Source of the DNA: a phage
Assembly: GCA_026209155.1 (NCBI GenBank)
Contig: GCA_026209155.1_3056.1
Length of the DNA stretch: 64,000 bases
Reading direction: 5' to 3' (one strand)
Shown here piece by piece: positions 1-7,720 of the stretch; position 1 is the first letter of the stretch, and each line of letters opens with the position of its first letter. The notes below the pieces were generated by a model. The model saw nothing but the letters and a program-made list of their open reading frames with translations. It had not been told where the DNA came from and ran no database searches. A program made the position numbers and the translations under genes.

Positions 1-524
<524 letters not shown>

Positions 525-551
525 AATAAAATGGGCCTTGTGGCCCACTCC

Positions 552-1730
552 TTAAAAATATTTTTTAAAACTCATCATAACTTTATCATCAACATCATTA
601 TCAATCTGTGCTACAAGGTAAGATGACAGTTCTACTTCTTGTGGCGCGGATTGAACATTATCAGAATTAAGATATTCACGAATCCAAGGATACGGATGTT
701 TAACCGGAGCATCAGTAATTGGGCATGGAAGACCGCACTGTTTCATACGAGATACAGTTAAGTAATCAATAAAGCTCCACATGCTATTTGTATTTAATCC
801 AGGAACATCGCCATCTTTAAATAAATGAACTGCCCAGTCTTTTTCTTGACGGTTAACTTCCATGAAAATATCAACTGCTTCTTGTTCACACTCTTGAGCA
901 ATTTTAACCCATTCATCGCCATCAGTACCAGATTGAAGTTGACGAATAATATATTGGGTGCCTTTAAGGTGAAGCTGTTCATCGCGTGCAATGAACTTCA
1001 TAATCTTGGCATTACCTTCCATGATTTCCATGTTTTTATGGAAGTTAAAGGTACATGCGAAAGATACATAAAAACGAATAGCTTCCAATGCGTTGATTAC
1101 ATGCAAACAGAGGTAAAGAGATTTCATTAGCTCATGCTTCCAATATGTCTCATGCTCAATAGCATCTTCAATAACGTCTTCGTCTGCATTAATTTCTTTT
1201 TGGTATTCGATATCAGCTTTAGCGTTTTCCCAATAACGAGTTTTAATCAGAACATCATCATAATAACGTCCAATGGATTCAGCACGTTTCATAATAGCTT
1301 CATCTAATACAATCTCATCAAATACCTTTGACGGATCAGTATAAAGATTTCGCATGATATGTGTATATGAACGGCTGTGAATAGTTTCACTAAAAGTCCA
1401 TGTAGCAACCCATGTATCAAGACTCGGGTCTGAAATTAATGACATAAGTACAGCAGATGGCGCACGACCCTGAATGCTATCCAAAAGTGATTGATACTTC
1501 AGGTTATTAGTAAAAATATTTTGCTGATACTGAGGAAGCTTATTAAACTGTGCAGCATCCATCATTAAGTTTACTTCTTCAGGACGCCAGAAAAATGACA
1601 ATTGCTTTTCGGTTAAATCTTCAAAAACTTTATGACGTTGAATATCATAACGCGCAATACCAAGACCTGAACCAAAAAACATAGGTTCTTTTAAAACATC
1701 AACTGGATTTGTATTAAAAACTGTGCTCAT
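552..1730 (-). CDS. nrdB: Ribonucleotide reductase small subunit, uninterrupted
   Basis: 392-aa ORF with di-iron RNR beta character, immediately downstream of nrdA; no intron. Confidence 0.93.
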   Translation of the reverse strand: MSTVFNTNPVDVLKEPMFFGSGLGIARYDIQRHKVFEDLTEKQLSFFWRPEEVNLMMDAAQFNKLPQYQQNIFTNNLKYQSLLDSIQGRAPSAVLMSLISDPSLDTWVATWTFSETIHSRSYTHIMRNLYTDPSKVFDEIVLDEAIMKRAESIGRYYDDVLIKTRYWENAKADIEYQKEINADEDVIEDAIEHETYWKHELMKSLYLCLHVINALEAIRFYVSFACTFNFHKNMEIMEGNAKIMKFIARDEQLHLKGTQYIIRQLQSGTDGDEWVKIAQECEQEAVDIFMEVNRQEKDWAVHLFKDGDVPGLNTNSMWSFIDYLTVSRMKQCGLPCPITDAPVKHPYPWIREYLNSDNVQSAPQEVELSSYLVAQIDNDVDDKVMMSFKKYF

Positions 1731-1781
1731 AAATTTTCCGCTTAGTTAATAGATAGTGACTCGTCCATGAGTCAAATTATA

Positions 1782-4046
1782 TCATAATTTACAGGATGAA
1801 CAATCTTCAGCTTTTGGAGTTTCTATTTCATAATCATCAGTACCAGAACCATCACGGGTATTATGATAATAGAAATTTTTAATGCCATAATACCATCCGT
1901 ATAGCATGTCATCAATCATTATTGACATTGGAACCTTTCCTTTTGGAAAAATCTGCGGGTCATAGTATGTATTTGCTGAAGCTGATTGACATACCCATTT
2001 CAGCATAATAGCTACCTGTGTAAGATAAGGTTTATTACCTTTCTTAGCTAATTTCCACGTATAATCATATAGGTCTATGTTATGCTCAATATTGGGCACG
2101 ACTTGATTAAAGGAACCCTCTTTTGATTCTTTAACAGAGACTGGTCCACGTGGAGGCTCGATACCGTTTGTACTGTTAGAAACTTGGGAAGATGACTCAC
2201 ATGGCATAAGTGCTGATAATGTGCTATTACGGATGCCAAAGAGCTTAAGGTCTTCCCGCAGCGACGACCAGTCACAAACGTATTTTGGAGCTGCGATTTG
2301 GTCAATCTTTTTATTGTACCAGTCGATAGGTAATTCACCTCGAGACCAACGAGTGTCTGAATAATATTCGCAAGGTCCTTTTTCTTTGGCGAGCTTAATG
2401 GATGCTTTAATGAGTCCATACTGTAATCTCTCAAATAGTTCATGTGTTAAATCGTTGGCATCTTCATAAGAAGCAAAGTTACTTGCCAGCCAAGCTGCAT
2501 AGTTTGTAACACCTACACCGAGGTTACGACGCTTTTTAGCTTTTTCTGCTTCAGGAACTGGATATCCTTGGTAATCCAAAAGATTATCAAGAGCACGAAC
2601 TTGAACTTCTGCCAATTCATTAATTTTATCTTGGTCTTGCCAGTCAAAATTATCTAGTACGAATGCAGAGAGAGTGCACAATCCAATTTCAGCATCAGGA
2701 CTATTCACATCATTTGTTGGAATAGCAATTTCACAACACAAGTTACTCTGGCGAATAGGTGCCTTTTCACGAATAAACGGAGTATAGTTATTCGTATTAT
2801 CAATGAACTGTACATAAATCCTTGCTGTTCCTGAACGTTCAGTCATGAGCAATTCAAATAGTTCACGGGCTTTAATACGCTTTTTACGAATATTAGGGTC
2901 TTTTTCTGCCGCTTCGTATAATTCACGGAAACGGTCTTGGTCTTTAAAATAAGAATAATAAAGCTCTCCACCCATTTCATGTGGACTGAACAAAGTAATG
3001 TAGTCGTTCTTTCCAAAACGTTCCATCATTAGGTCATTCAGTTGAACGCCATAATCCATATGACGAATGCGGTTTTCTTCTACGCCTTTGTTATTTTTCA
3101 AAACGAGAAGATTTTCAACTTCCAAATGCCAAATAGGATAATAAGCAGTAGCAGCGCCGCCACGAATTCCACCCTGTGAACATGATTTAACTGCAGTCTG
3201 AAAATGTTTCCAAAAAGGAATAACACCGGTATGGCGTACTTCACCCATGCCAATCTTAGAACCTTCGGCACGAATCATACCAACGTTAATACCAATTCCA
3301 GCACGTTTGGAGATATATTCAACAATTGAAGCGGAAGCCTTATTGATAGACTTCAATGAATCTCCTGCCTCAATAACAACACATGAACTAAACTGTCGAG
3401 TCGGAGTACGGCAACCAGCCATAATAGGAGTTGGCAATGAAATCTGTCGAGTAGATACTGCTTCATAAAAACGGATAACATGTTTTAATCTATCAACAGG
3501 TTCGTCTTGATGCAATGCCATTCCAATAGCCATAAATGCAAACTGTGGAGTTTCATAAATTTGACCAGTGGTTTTATCTTTAACGAGATATTTTTCTTTT
3601 AATTGCATCGCCCCGGAATAAGTAAATTCCATATCCCGCTCGTGCTTAATTTTTGATTCTAAAAATGTAATTTCTTCTGCAGAATATTTTGACAACAATT
3701 CAGGGTCATATTTACCTTCATTTACACAGTAAGAAATATGGTCAATAAATGAACGTGGTTCATATTGTCCGTAAACATGCTTACGAAGAGCAAACATTAA
3801 ACAGCGTGCAGCTACATATTGATAATCAGGCTCTTCAACTGAAATAGAATTCGCAGCAGCCTTAATTACAATGGTTTGAATGTCATCAGTGGTCATTCCA
3901 TCACGGAGATATGATTTAATATTTTCATATAATTCATAAGGATCTACAGATGTTCCTTCGGCTGCCCAAGATAAAACTTTAATAATTTTTTGCGGGTCAA
4001 AGCTCTGAGAAACACCACTACTTTTGATAACATTAATTAATTGCAT
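1782..4046 (-). CDS. nrdA: Ribonucleotide reductase large subunit
   Basis: 754 aa, same length as T4 NrdA; class I RNR alpha motifs; end signature CSSCKL-like. Confidence 0.95.
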   Translation of the reverse strand: MQLINVIKSSGVSQSFDPQKIIKVLSWAAEGTSVDPYELYENIKSYLRDGMTTDDIQTIVIKAAANSISVEEPDYQYVAARCLMFALRKHVYGQYEPRSFIDHISYCVNEGKYDPELLSKYSAEEITFLESKIKHERDMEFTYSGAMQLKEKYLVKDKTTGQIYETPQFAFMAIGMALHQDEPVDRLKHVIRFYEAVSTRQISLPTPIMAGCRTPTRQFSSCVVIEAGDSLKSINKASASIVEYISKRAGIGINVGMIRAEGSKIGMGEVRHTGVIPFWKHFQTAVKSCSQGGIRGGAATAYYPIWHLEVENLLVLKNNKGVEENRIRHMDYGVQLNDLMMERFGKNDYITLFSPHEMGGELYYSYFKDQDRFRELYEAAEKDPNIRKKRIKARELFELLMTERSGTARIYVQFIDNTNNYTPFIREKAPIRQSNLCCEIAIPTNDVNSPDAEIGLCTLSAFVLDNFDWQDQDKINELAEVQVRALDNLLDYQGYPVPEAEKAKKRRNLGVGVTNYAAWLASNFASYEDANDLTHELFERLQYGLIKASIKLAKEKGPCEYYSDTRWSRGELPIDWYNKKIDQIAAPKYVCDWSSLREDLKLFGIRNSTLSALMPCESSSQVSNSTNGIEPPRGPVSVKESKEGSFNQVVPNIEHNIDLYDYTWKLAKKGNKPYLTQVAIMLKWVCQSASANTYYDPQIFPKGKVPMSIMIDDMLYGWYYGIKNFYYHNTRDGSGTDDYEIETPKAEDCSSCKL

Positions 4047-4363: not shown

Positions 4364-4592
4364 ATTGTTTTTCCGTTAAAACAGTAATATCATAATAACA
4401 ATCAGAAGAAGTTTTAACTGTAGAAATTTTATTATCAAAATACTCACGAGTCATTTTATGAGTATAATATTTTTTGCCATAAATGATAATAGGCTGATTT
4501 GGTCCTGGAACTTCTAACTCACTTGGGTTAGGAAGTGTAAAAAGAACTACACCAGAAGTATCTTTAAATCGTAAAATCATATATCCTCGCAA
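4317..4592 (-). CDS. Hypothetical small protein (nrdA.2-like)
   Basis: 91-aa ORF in operon context between td exon 2 and nrdA. Confidence 0.5.
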
Positions 4593-4603
4593 TTAATAAT
4601 TAA

Positions 4604-4915
4604 TTACACCGCCATTTTTCCTTTAATAGGAGGGTGTGATTCGTAACCTTTAAGAACGAAATCTTTAGGCCTGAGTTTAAGAACATATTTTAATTGTTCT
4701 TTAGTAGAAAGATAACGGAATTTATAAGGCAATCCGCTTATTACCAGTTCACAAAGCTCTTTAGGTTCACGACGTAAAATTTCTTTACATTGTTCTACGT
4801 GATTCATATAGATATGAGTATTACCGCCAGAAAATATCAAATCTCCAGGAATAAGATTACACATCTTAGCTACAATATGAACTAACGCAGCATATGATGC
4901 AATATTAAATGGAAG
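4604..4915 (-). CDS. td: Thymidylate synthase exon 2 (C-terminal 103 aa, begins LPFNIASY)
   Basis: TS motif LPFNIASYAALVHIVA; the track ATG at 4916-4918 is the last three intron nucleotides, not a real start. Confidence 0.9.
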   Translation of the reverse strand, partial: LPFNIASYAALVHIVAKMCNLIPGDLIFSGGNTHIYMNHVEQCKEILRREPKELCELVISGLPYKFRYLSTKEQLKYVLKLRPKDFVLKGYESHPPIKGKMAV

Positions 4916-5931
4916 CATTATGTTCAGATAAGGTCGTTAATCTTACCCCGGAATTATATCCAGCTGCATGTCACCATGCAGATCAGACTATATCTCCAAC
5001 TTGTTAAAGCAAGTTGTCTATCGTTTCGAGTCACTTGACCCTACTCCCCAAAGGGATAGTCGTTAGGCATTTATGTAGAACCAATTCCATTTATCAGATT
5101 TTACACGATAAGTAACTAATCCAGACGAAATTTTAAAATGTCTAGCTGCATCTGCTGCACAATCAAAAATAACCCCATCACATGAAATCTTTTTAATATT
5201 ACTAGGCTTTTTACCTTTCATCTTTTCTGATATTTTAGATTTAGTTATGTCTGAATGCTTATGATTAAAGAATGAATTATTTTCACCTGAACGATTTCTG
5301 CATTTACTACAAGTATAAGCAGAAGTTTGTATGCGAACACCGCACTTACAAAACTTATGGGTTTCTGGATTCCAACGCCCGTTTTTACTTCCGGGTTTAC
5401 TGTAAAGAGCTTTCCGACCATCAGGTCCAAGTTTAAGCATCTTAGCTTTAACAGTTTCAGAACGTTTCTTAATAATTTCTTCTTTTAATGGATGCGTAGA
5501 ACATGTATCACCAAACGTTGCATCAGCAATATTGTATCCATTAATTTTAGAATTAAGCTCTTTAATCCAAAAATTTTCTCGTTCAATAATCAAATCTTTC
5601 TCATATGGAATTTCTTCCAAAATAGAACATTCAAACACATTACCATGTTTGTTAAAAGACCTCTGAAGCTTTATAGAAGAATGGCATCCTTTTTCTAAAT
5701 CTTTAAAATGCCTCTTCCATCTCTTTTCAAAATCTTTAGCACTTCCTACATATACTTTATTGTTTAAAGTATTTTTAATCTGATAAATTCCGCTTTTCAT
5801 AAATACCTCTTTAAATATAGAAGTATTTATTAAAGGGCAGTCCTACAATTTAGCACGGGATTGTCTACTAGAGAGGTTCCCCGTTTAGATAGATTACAAG
5901 TATAAGTCACCTTATACTCAGGCCTCAATTA
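4916..5931 (-). mobile_element. Group I self-splicing intron in td (1016 nt) carrying the I-TevI gene
   Basis: Exon 1 ends ...CTTGGGT; intron begins TAATTGAGGCCTGAGTATAAGG (minus strand), ends ...AATG before exon 2 CTTCCATTTAAT; matches remembered T4 td intron ends and length. Confidence 0.9.
5063..5800 (-). CDS. Intron-encoded GIY-YIG homing endonuclease I-TevI (245 aa)
   Basis: N-terminal GIYQIKNTLNNKVYVGSAKDFEKRWKRH GIY-YIG motif; NUMOD3-like and Zn-finger region (CKCGVRIQTSAYTCSKC); lies inside the td intron. Confidence 0.92.
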   Translation of the reverse strand: MKSGIYQIKNTLNNKVYVGSAKDFEKRWKRHFKDLEKGCHSSIKLQRSFNKHGNVFECSILEEIPYEKDLIIERENFWIKELNSKINGYNIADATFGDTCSTHPLKEEIIKKRSETVKAKMLKLGPDGRKALYSKPGSKNGRWNPETHKFCKCGVRIQTSAYTCSKCRNRSGENNSFFNHKHSDITKSKISEKMKGKKPSNIKKISCDGVIFDCAADAARHFKISSGLVTYRVKSDKWNWFYINA

Positions 5932-6480
5932 ACCCAAGAAAACATCTACTGATCGTTGATACCACTGCAAATCCAAATAGCCATTACGCACATTAAACTG
6001 ATAGAACATATGACAAGGCGGTAATGCCATTTGCTTGAGTTCAGCTGGATTCCATGCTGAAACAACTTGACGTCTATCATTTGGCAGTTTTTTAATACGA
6101 TCAATAACTTCTACAATTTGGTCTACACCGCCAAAATCACGCCATTGTTTTCCATAAATTGGACCAAGTTCACCGCTATGGTATCCTAAATCTTTTGCTT
6201 GATTTTCGTAATTTTCATCCCAGACTGTTTTGCCTTGAATTAATGAATCATGCTGAATTAATCGTAAATCATTTACGTTAGTACTTCCTGACAAAAACCA
6301 TATTAGCTCAGCAATACAAGCTTTCCAGGCGAGCTTCTTAGTCGTTACTGCAGGAAAACCTTTAGTTAAATCCCAGCGTAATTTAGTACCGAACAAAGCA
6401 ATTGTTCCTGTGCCTGTTCGGTCATCGGTTTCATAGCCATTTTCAAAAATGTCTTTAATTAAATCTTGGTATTGTTTCAT
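5932..6480 (-). CDS. td: Thymidylate synthase exon 1 (N-terminal 183 aa, ends DVFLG)
   Basis: TS motifs (RTGTGT, active-site region PPCH); in-frame TAA is the first intron codon. Confidence 0.9.
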
Positions 6481-6525
6481 TTAGTACCTTATATAAATTA
6501 TAATACATTTTATGAAGCTAAATAA

Positions 6526-6885
6526 TCAATACGGTTTAGCATCAAATTTTCTTTCAATTTCAGGCGTGAAATACAATTCTTTACCGCGTTTGGAAAAGCG
6601 ACCAATAATATGATAATTATTCTCATCAAACGTAATATTGCCAATATCCATAGCTTTCAACCAAATATCGATATTTCTATCCAGTTTTATATCAAAATTC
6701 CAATACGGAGAACTATTACCGAAAATACTGCAAGCGGATTCAGTGAAACAACTACTATAAATCTTGTCTTTAGGAACTACTAATTGATAGACGCCTTTAA
6801 TAAACTGAGGACCCTGCCATTTTGGTTGTTTCGCGTCTTTTTCTAATAGAATAGGGTAATAATTAAAATTCATATTTTCCGCCAC
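6526..6885 (-). CDS. Hypothetical protein, 119 aa, between frd and td
   Basis: ORF in the frd-td interval; I remember frd and td as directly overlapping in T4, so likely an insertion. Confidence 0.5.
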   Translation of the reverse strand: MAENMNFNYYPILLEKDAKQPKWQGPQFIKGVYQLVVPKDKIYSSCFTESACSIFGNSSPYWNFDIKLDRNIDIWLKAMDIGNITFDENNYHIIGRFSKRGKELYFTPEIERKFDAKPY

Positions 6886-6893
6886 GTGTTATT

Positions 6894-7720
<827 letters not shown>

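Follow-up and report, generated by a model that had tools for sequence, protein, structure and literature searches.

The td gene of a T4-like phage is interrupted by the well-known group I intron with an intact I-TevI gene

For group I introns of bacteria and phages, and for intron homing, the founding example is the td intron of phage T4 with its homing endonuclease I-TevI, and guanosine-dependent self-splicing has been shown experimentally for T4 td. The mechanism and regulation of this system in T4 have been summarised in a review (PMC2988022), according to which I-TevI recognises a cleavage motif defined as CXXXG, exon sequence flanking the td intron is co-converted, the protein represses its own late promoter via an operator resembling the homing site, and a hairpin restricts translation of I-TevI to late transcripts that start inside this hairpin. 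Here, we compare with T4 and other known td loci the td gene of the window, by which we mean the whole stretch of 64,000 nucleotides of phage DNA that was analysed. This comparison confirmed that the td intron with I-TevI found here is real, intact, already well known and extensively characterised. The first 25 kb of the window reach at best about 95% identity to any record, and the best matches are all Tequatrovirus; the td gene is that of a T4-like phage (Tequatrovirus), not of T4 itself.

The td gene runs on the minus strand from 6480 to 4604, and the interval 4604..6480 coincides exactly with its start and stop. Every sequence statement of the initial annotation is present in the window, but the strand needed correction, the feature being a minus-strand one. 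Exon 1 (6480..5932, minus strand, 549 nt, codons 1-183) opens with an ATG at 6480 and ends at 5932 with GTT TTC TTG GGT, the RNA form of which, UUGGGU, is the exon strand of helix P1. As first noticed, an in-frame TAA follows directly at 5931..5929, serving as a stop and as the first three bases of the intron. The IA-type group I intron extends over 5931..4916 of the minus strand, and its length of 1016 nt, also given at the outset, is reproduced by these boundaries (5931-4916+1). It begins with TAATTGAGGCCTGAGTATAAGGTGACTTATACTTG in DNA (UAAUUGAGG in RNA, or UAAUUGAGGCCUGAGUAUAAGGUGACUUAUACUUG in a longer form) and ends with ...CATAATG (RNA ...CAUAAUG) at 4916, including the terminal G that group I introns require. 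Exon 2 (4915..4604, minus strand, 312 nt) starts at 4915 with CTTCCATTTAATATTGC (RNA CUUCCAUUUAAUAUUGC), encodes codons 184-286 and closes with a TAA stop that ends at 4604. Joining the exons yields 286 codons and the protein sequence ...DVFLG|LPFNIASY... across the junction, more fully ...RSVDVFLG|LPFNIASYAALV...; the proposed restoration of DVFLG-LPFNIASY in a thymidylate synthase of 286 residues was thus found as described, with the frame intact and colinear with intronless alleles. We regard it as practically certain that the mobile td group I intron, with I-TevI, splits td after codon 183.

T4 (NC_000866.4, td at 143235..145112, annotated as a joined coding sequence) carries the intron in the identical position, following codon 183 (GGU|CU), and with the same helices. 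The alignment to T4 td that had been suggested was run, and it showed a thymidylate synthase that aligns end to end and introns that are 99.7% identical, with three differences, none touching a helix. The T4 reference has an extra T in the P6a loop, near intron position 92, which gives it 1017 nt rather than the 1016 seen here; position 263, in the I-TevI ORF, shows a synonymous G/A difference; and position 949, unpaired between P7 and P9, is A in the window and C in T4. The splice-site ends had been said to match T4 td, which holds for the ends of the intron but not for exon 2, whose first 17 bases are not identical: T4 begins with CUACCG (CTACCG) and the window with CUUCCA (CTTCCA), both changes being synonymous. 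The intron of phage RB3 (KM606994 / AY262153) also measures 1016 nt, shares with the window both the one-base deletion in the P6a loop and the A at position 949 relative to T4, and differs from the window at one synonymous base of the ORF. The closest td locus is that of vB-Eco-KMB39 (OR539219), with 99.4% identity over 1877 nt, an exon 1 identical to that of the window, five differences in the intron and six in exon 2. Additionally, PD112, N2 and C2-3 have the same insertion site and ribozyme core as the window without I-TevI, and the N2 td intron carries the P6a hairpin of the nrdD intron.

To describe the ribozyme, fourteen helices were written out (P1, P2, P3, P4, P5, P6, P6a, P7, P7.1, P7.2, P8, P9, P9.1 and P9.2), and all 73 of their 73 base pairs are standard, including those of the P3/P7 pseudoknot core. 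The internal guide sequence GCCUGA (5918..5923, minus strand) pairs at six of six positions with the last six bases of exon 1 to form P1, in which U(-1) and intron G9 make the U.G pair at the 5' splice site; the td intron of Klebsiella phage HMGUkp2 keeps 6/6 pairs in P1 despite changes on both strands. The 5' half of the core (5839..5917, minus strand) holds P2, the 5' strand of P3, P4, P5, P6 and the 5' strand of P6a, and the 3' half (4927..5078, minus strand) holds the 3' strands of P6a and P6, P7, P7.1, P7.2, the 3' strand of P3, P8, the 3' strand of P7, P9, P9.1 and P9.2. Between P7 and the 3' strand of P3 lie the extra helices of subgroup IA, P7.1 (UCCC/GGGA, 5056..5045) and P7.2 (GGGUC/GACUC, 5041..5028), both of which covary in relatives. 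For free-energy folding, the P6a loop was removed at the joint of the natural PD112 deletion, and the minimum-energy fold of this ORF-less core recovered P2, P3, P4, P5, P6/P6a, P7.1, P7.2, P8, P9 and P9.1 (z -3.65). A P10 pairing between exon 2 and intron bases 6-8 would comprise three pairs here and two in T4, but it showed no consistent covariation among the variants inspected and is not claimed. A failure of the region to fold as a group I intron and a junction that leaves the synthase frame broken were both looked for, and neither occurred. The 99.7% identity to the T4 td intron suggests that the intron of the window would likewise self-splice in a guanosine-dependent manner.

Covariation among related phage introns supports the group I fold. 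A covariance model was built from six td cores, and the window and ten loci were searched with it, resulting in an alignment of 16 matches: td introns, nrdD introns (EC6 and JB75), the T4 nrdB intron, and introns of a phiKZ-like thymidylate synthase, a Campylobacter phage and a Pectobacterium phage. Each ORF-bearing td intron enters this alignment as two half matches, and one match, in the phiKZ-like locus, is weak. For the window core, the model (R1) gave 104 bits for the 5' half and 200 bits for the 3' half. In the 16-match alignment, which is fitted to the model structure and favours that structure, 94.6% of cells are paired, compared with 33-41% after shifting the partners by 1-3 columns; changes on both sides are seen in 54 of 68 pairs, compared with 12-18 after shifting, and none of 500 shuffles reached any of these measures. 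When halves were joined and the weak match was dropped, the merged set of 12 introns showed compensatory change in 50 of the 73 pairs, with P7 invariant and hence consistent with the fold while adding no covariation support. Among the td alleles alone, every substitution within a helix preserves its pair, e.g., A-U to U-A in P8 of N2, G-C to C-G in P8 of HMGUkp2, and a different yet self-complementary P6a in N2.

The group I model of Rfam, which the initial annotation had proposed as a check, gave a divided answer. A scan of the whole window at the gathering score of RF00028 (50 bits) returned no matches. In a relaxed scan, RF00028 was detected with 42.5 bits (E 3.4e-9), but in this match only the 3' half was placed correctly, the 5' part being forced onto the ORF. 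The window stays below the gathering score because the core is interrupted by the 738-nt I-TevI ORF, which sits in the P6a loop. Td introns that naturally lack the ORF and occupy the same site exceed the threshold, with 73.8 bits for PD112 (262 nt), 73.6 bits for C2-3 (320 nt) and 72.6 bits for N2 (254 nt); compared with the window, their cores show between 1 and 10 differences, that of C2-3 just one. The ORF-bearing td intron of HMGUkp2 is also below threshold, at 31 bits. The gathering score is a detection threshold and not a defining property of group I introns. The relaxed scan, the ORF-less alleles and the custom covariance model show the ORF insertion to be the cause, and we rejected the miss as evidence against the intron.

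The I-TevI ORF itself (5800..5063, minus strand; intron positions 132-869) lies in the P6a loop and encodes a GIY-YIG homing endonuclease of 245 amino acids plus a stop. Its last codons (UUC UAC AUA AAU GCC UAA) provide the 3' strands of P6a and P6, an arrangement that was also described for T4 (PMC2988022). The protein is 100% identical to T4 I-TevI and contains an N-terminal GIY-YIG catalytic domain whose catalytic residues are intact (PF01541, residues 3-90), a linker zinc finger (PF22635, 149-179) and a C-terminal DNA-binding domain (PF20987, 192-242). Over residues 130-245, it does not differ from the crystallised DNA-binding fragment 1I3J, and in the printed alignment with the catalytic fragment 1MK0 the sole difference is residue 75, E in the window and A in the crystal chain; apart from their engineered residue changes, the crystallised fragments are identical to the window protein. 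From this identity, the endonuclease would be expected to be active in this phage as well. An intron that is present but decaying, with a ribozyme or an I-TevI that no longer functions, as in the ORF-deleted td introns, has precedents among relatives: in the 446-nt F1 intron, the ORF carries an internal deletion and the promoter element is altered, and the td introns of C2-3, PD112 and N2 have lost the ORF. In the window, however, the ORF is full length, its product equals the active T4 enzyme, no core pair is non-standard, and the only core differences from T4 are the one-base deletion in the P6a loop and the A/C in the unpaired P7-P9 linker, both of which are found in RB3, so that we consider decay very improbable and retain the intact mobile intron as our reading.

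The late-promoter-like element noted about 25 nt upstream of the I-TevI ATG is present, although at 5831..5824 of the minus strand and not at 5825..5832, a shift of one base; it is AATAAATA, the late-promoter element reported for T4 I-TevI, with 23 bases between it and the ATG at 5800. By itself the motif is no evidence, since the window contains 6 copies of the octamer where shuffles predict 14, and as a statistical signal it was rejected, its count not being above chance. A promoter role is instead suggested by the T4 experiments together with the surrounding sequence: from intron position 94 to the I-TevI ATG, a span that takes in the AATAAATA element, the hairpin and the start codon, the window is identical to T4. 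A homing-site-like stretch (5845..5826, minus strand) overlaps the element and is the best ungapped match upstream of the ORF, with 14/20 bases identical, a likeness that is marginal on its own given that 37 of 500 shuffles equal it; by analogy with the function described in the T4 literature, it would represent the autorepression operator. The Shine-Dalgarno hairpin (5801..5828, minus strand) pairs the GAGG inside AGAGGU (5810..5805) with upstream sequence. In the fold of 5845..5790, the Shine-Dalgarno GAGG is paired (-16 kcal/mol, z -3.5), and HMGUkp2 retains the stem of the hairpin through U.G>C-G and A-U>G.U changes. General scans of 4400..7000 remained at chance level: 10 sigma-70 promoter-like sites were found against 11.8 expected, none above chance, and the single 'terminator', on the plus strand, is simply the P8 hairpin read as its reverse complement.

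We then compared the joined thymidylate synthase with known enzymes and with uninterrupted genes. The joined protein aligns with the T4 thymidylate synthase crystal sequence 1TIS over residues 1-286 of 286 (E 9e-197, 8 substitutions) and covers the complete ThyA profile PF00303 (1-266/266, E 3e-96); cellular ThyA-type synthase structures match it at about E 1e-73, with no gap at the junction. A 400-nt query spanning the junction, with 200 nt of exon on either side, matched in one piece, at up to 98.5%, in phages SP1, 132, Killian, AR1, RB27 and T2. The natural intronless td genes of SP1 and T2 are colinear over the junction, ungapped, at 87/90 bases, and removal of the intron leaves an uninterrupted td that is colinear with these intronless homologues. 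The view of td as two separate genes or a disrupted pseudogene, which is how many records present it (a hypothetical protein flanked by two 'thymidylate synthase' CDS, several GenBank records among them) and how ORF callers split it, into 183 aa (6480..5929) and 104 aa (4918..4604) with the last three intron bases forming an AUG in frame with exon 2, has almost no chance of being correct, as neither fragment is a complete synthase fold and only the joined product matches PF00303 and 1TIS in full, the intervening RNA has a complete group I core, and the curated T4 and RB3 records join both pieces. For a td gene interrupted by an intron, the split in automated annotation has its own explanation: the Rfam gathering threshold misses the ORF-bearing intron, and the in-frame AUG helps further. 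The plus-strand ORFs within 4604..6480 were rejected as genes, all being at most 68 aa and antisense to td or I-TevI.

The neighbourhood on the minus strand reads, in order, frd (7475..6894), a 119-aa ORF (6885..6526), td with its intron, nrdA.2-like (DUF5496), nrdA.1-like (DUF4326), nrdA, nrdB and a GIY-YIG endonuclease gene. The ORF between frd and td is present in the window, RB3 and vB-Eco-KMB39 and absent from T4, whereas T4 has mobE and the nrdB intron and the window has neither. The GIY-YIG ORF at 114..548 was considered as an extra free-standing homing endonuclease and dropped, having a full-length match to phrog_1111 'endonuclease'; we take it to be T4 denA (endonuclease II), an ordinary gene at that position.

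Taken together with the T4 literature, these features suggest how the locus would operate. The primary transcript would fold into the P1-P9.2 ribozyme, an external guanosine would attack the U.G pair at the 5' splice site in P1, and the freed end of exon 1 would then attack after the terminal G of the intron, joining GGU to CUU in an mRNA for the 286-aa enzyme. I-TevI, encoded in the P6a loop, would be made late in infection through the intron-internal late promoter, which is probably used in this phage as in T4. Transcripts that start earlier would sequester the I-TevI ribosome-binding site in the hairpin, and the protein could repress its own promoter by binding the homing-site-like operator. 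During a mixed infection, I-TevI would bind an intronless td around the insertion site and cut it 23-25 nt upstream at CAACG, and double-strand-break repair would copy in the intron with a short stretch of flanking exon. CAACG, an instance of the I-TevI cleavage motif (CNNNG), is found at 5958..5954 of the minus strand, i.e., at -27..-23 from the insertion site, and the SP1 and T2 alleles, which lack the intron, have it there as well.

The exons and the intron of the window differ sharply in their divergence from other phages. Relative to T4, 53 of 861 exon bases differ, with eight amino-acid changes in the synthase, against 3 of 1016 in the intron (Fisher p 3e-15), and relative to RB3, 45 of 861 exon bases differ against one in the intron. 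The window exons and the intronless SP1 allele differ at only 7 of 812 positions, two of which, at -6 and -4, fall inside the exon strand of P1; with the intron guide, the window exon forms 6/6 pairs and the SP1 or T2 exon end only 4/6. That exons and intron diverge so unequally, and that the exons resemble SP1, fits homing by I-TevI and does not prove it. We see about an even chance that an RB3/T4-type intron homed recently into an SP1-like allele, with a co-conversion tract extending less than 37 nt 5' and less than 120 nt 3' of the intron, which would have been just enough to provide a working P1. Homing of this kind has long been established for the td intron. A 2004 survey of T-even introns reportedly reached the same general conclusion on homing. 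As a discovery, the td intron of the window matters little, and its practical value lies in the annotation pitfalls and in the homing example, the discordant divergence and the SP1-like exons offering what would be a clear example from nature of homing with very little co-conversion. Of the 690 matching records in the phage collection that was searched, 197 contain at least 80% of the td query of 1877 nt, intron and ORF included, and the matches include the td records AY262149, AY262153 and AY262156, which presumably stem from the 2004 T-even intron survey.

Comparison of the td exons in the window (4604..6480, minus strand) with those of other phages revealed near-identity to the intronless td of phage SP1, with differences at 7 of 812 positions, while the exons of the T4 and RB3 td genes differ from them at 53 and 45 of 861 positions, respectively. 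Two of the seven differences from SP1 fall within the exon strand of P1, at positions -6 and -4, and the end of exon 1 in the window forms all six P1 pairs with the intron, as opposed to a predicted four of six for the exon ends of SP1 or T2. Taken together, the SP1-like exons, the differences at -6 and -4, and the P1 pairing of 6/6 versus 4/6 suggest from sequence comparison that the td intron of the window may have arrived by homing in the recent past and that the co-conversion tract was very short.

The intron itself (4916..5931, minus strand) scored 42.5 bits against the Rfam group I intron model RF00028, under the gathering score of 50 bits, and the ORF-bearing td intron of the Klebsiella phage HMGUkp2 likewise remained under this score, at 31 bits. 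The same td core without the ORF reached about 73 bits. At the gathering score, introns with an endonuclease gene in P6a are a systematic blind spot of RF00028. A related group I intron splits the thymidylate synthase gene of the phiKZ-like jumbo phage PA02 of Pseudomonas (1155..2252 of its locus), where RF00028 gave 69 bits and P3-P9 can be aligned with the td intron; its homing endonuclease ORF follows P9, whereas that of the window lies in P6a.

Shortened td introns were found in several other phages. The introns of F1 (446 nt, with an internal deletion in the ORF and the late-promoter-like element AATAAATA altered by an A>C substitution), C2-3 (320 nt) and PD112 (262 nt) share a common insertion site and form a natural series of decaying td introns. 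In the ORF-less td intron of phage N2 (254 nt, ~499..752 of its locus), the P6a hairpin has the sequence GUUCUUUUGAAC, exactly as in the nrdD intron of phage JB75 (1163..1412); judged on sequence, this N2 intron looks like a recombinant of td and nrdD introns that has lost I-TevI.

The last three bases of the td intron (4916..4918, minus strand) are AUG, in the frame of exon 2, which leads ORF finders to report a "thymidylate synthase" fragment of 104 aa (4604..4918, minus strand). Many GenBank Tequatrovirus records list td as two separate CDS.

Some of the neighboring genes, all on the minus strand, depart from the T4 arrangement. Between frd and td lies a 119-aa ORF (6526..6885) that matched phrog_1928, of unknown function, and had no Pfam match; T4 lacks this ORF and its frd overlaps the td start, while in RB3 and in KMB39, the closest td locus, an ORF likewise occupies the gap. 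Downstream of nrdA, nrdB (552..1730, 392 aa, PF00268) is uninterrupted and separated from it by 51 nt (1731..1781), leaving the window phage without the nrdB intron with I-TevIII, mobE and nrdB.1, all of which are found in T4. Finally, a 144-aa GIY-YIG ORF (114..548) matched phrog_1111 "endonuclease" over its full length; its listed start is GTG, an internal ATG being more likely, and we take it to be the homologue of T4 denA (endonuclease II) rather than an additional homing endonuclease.
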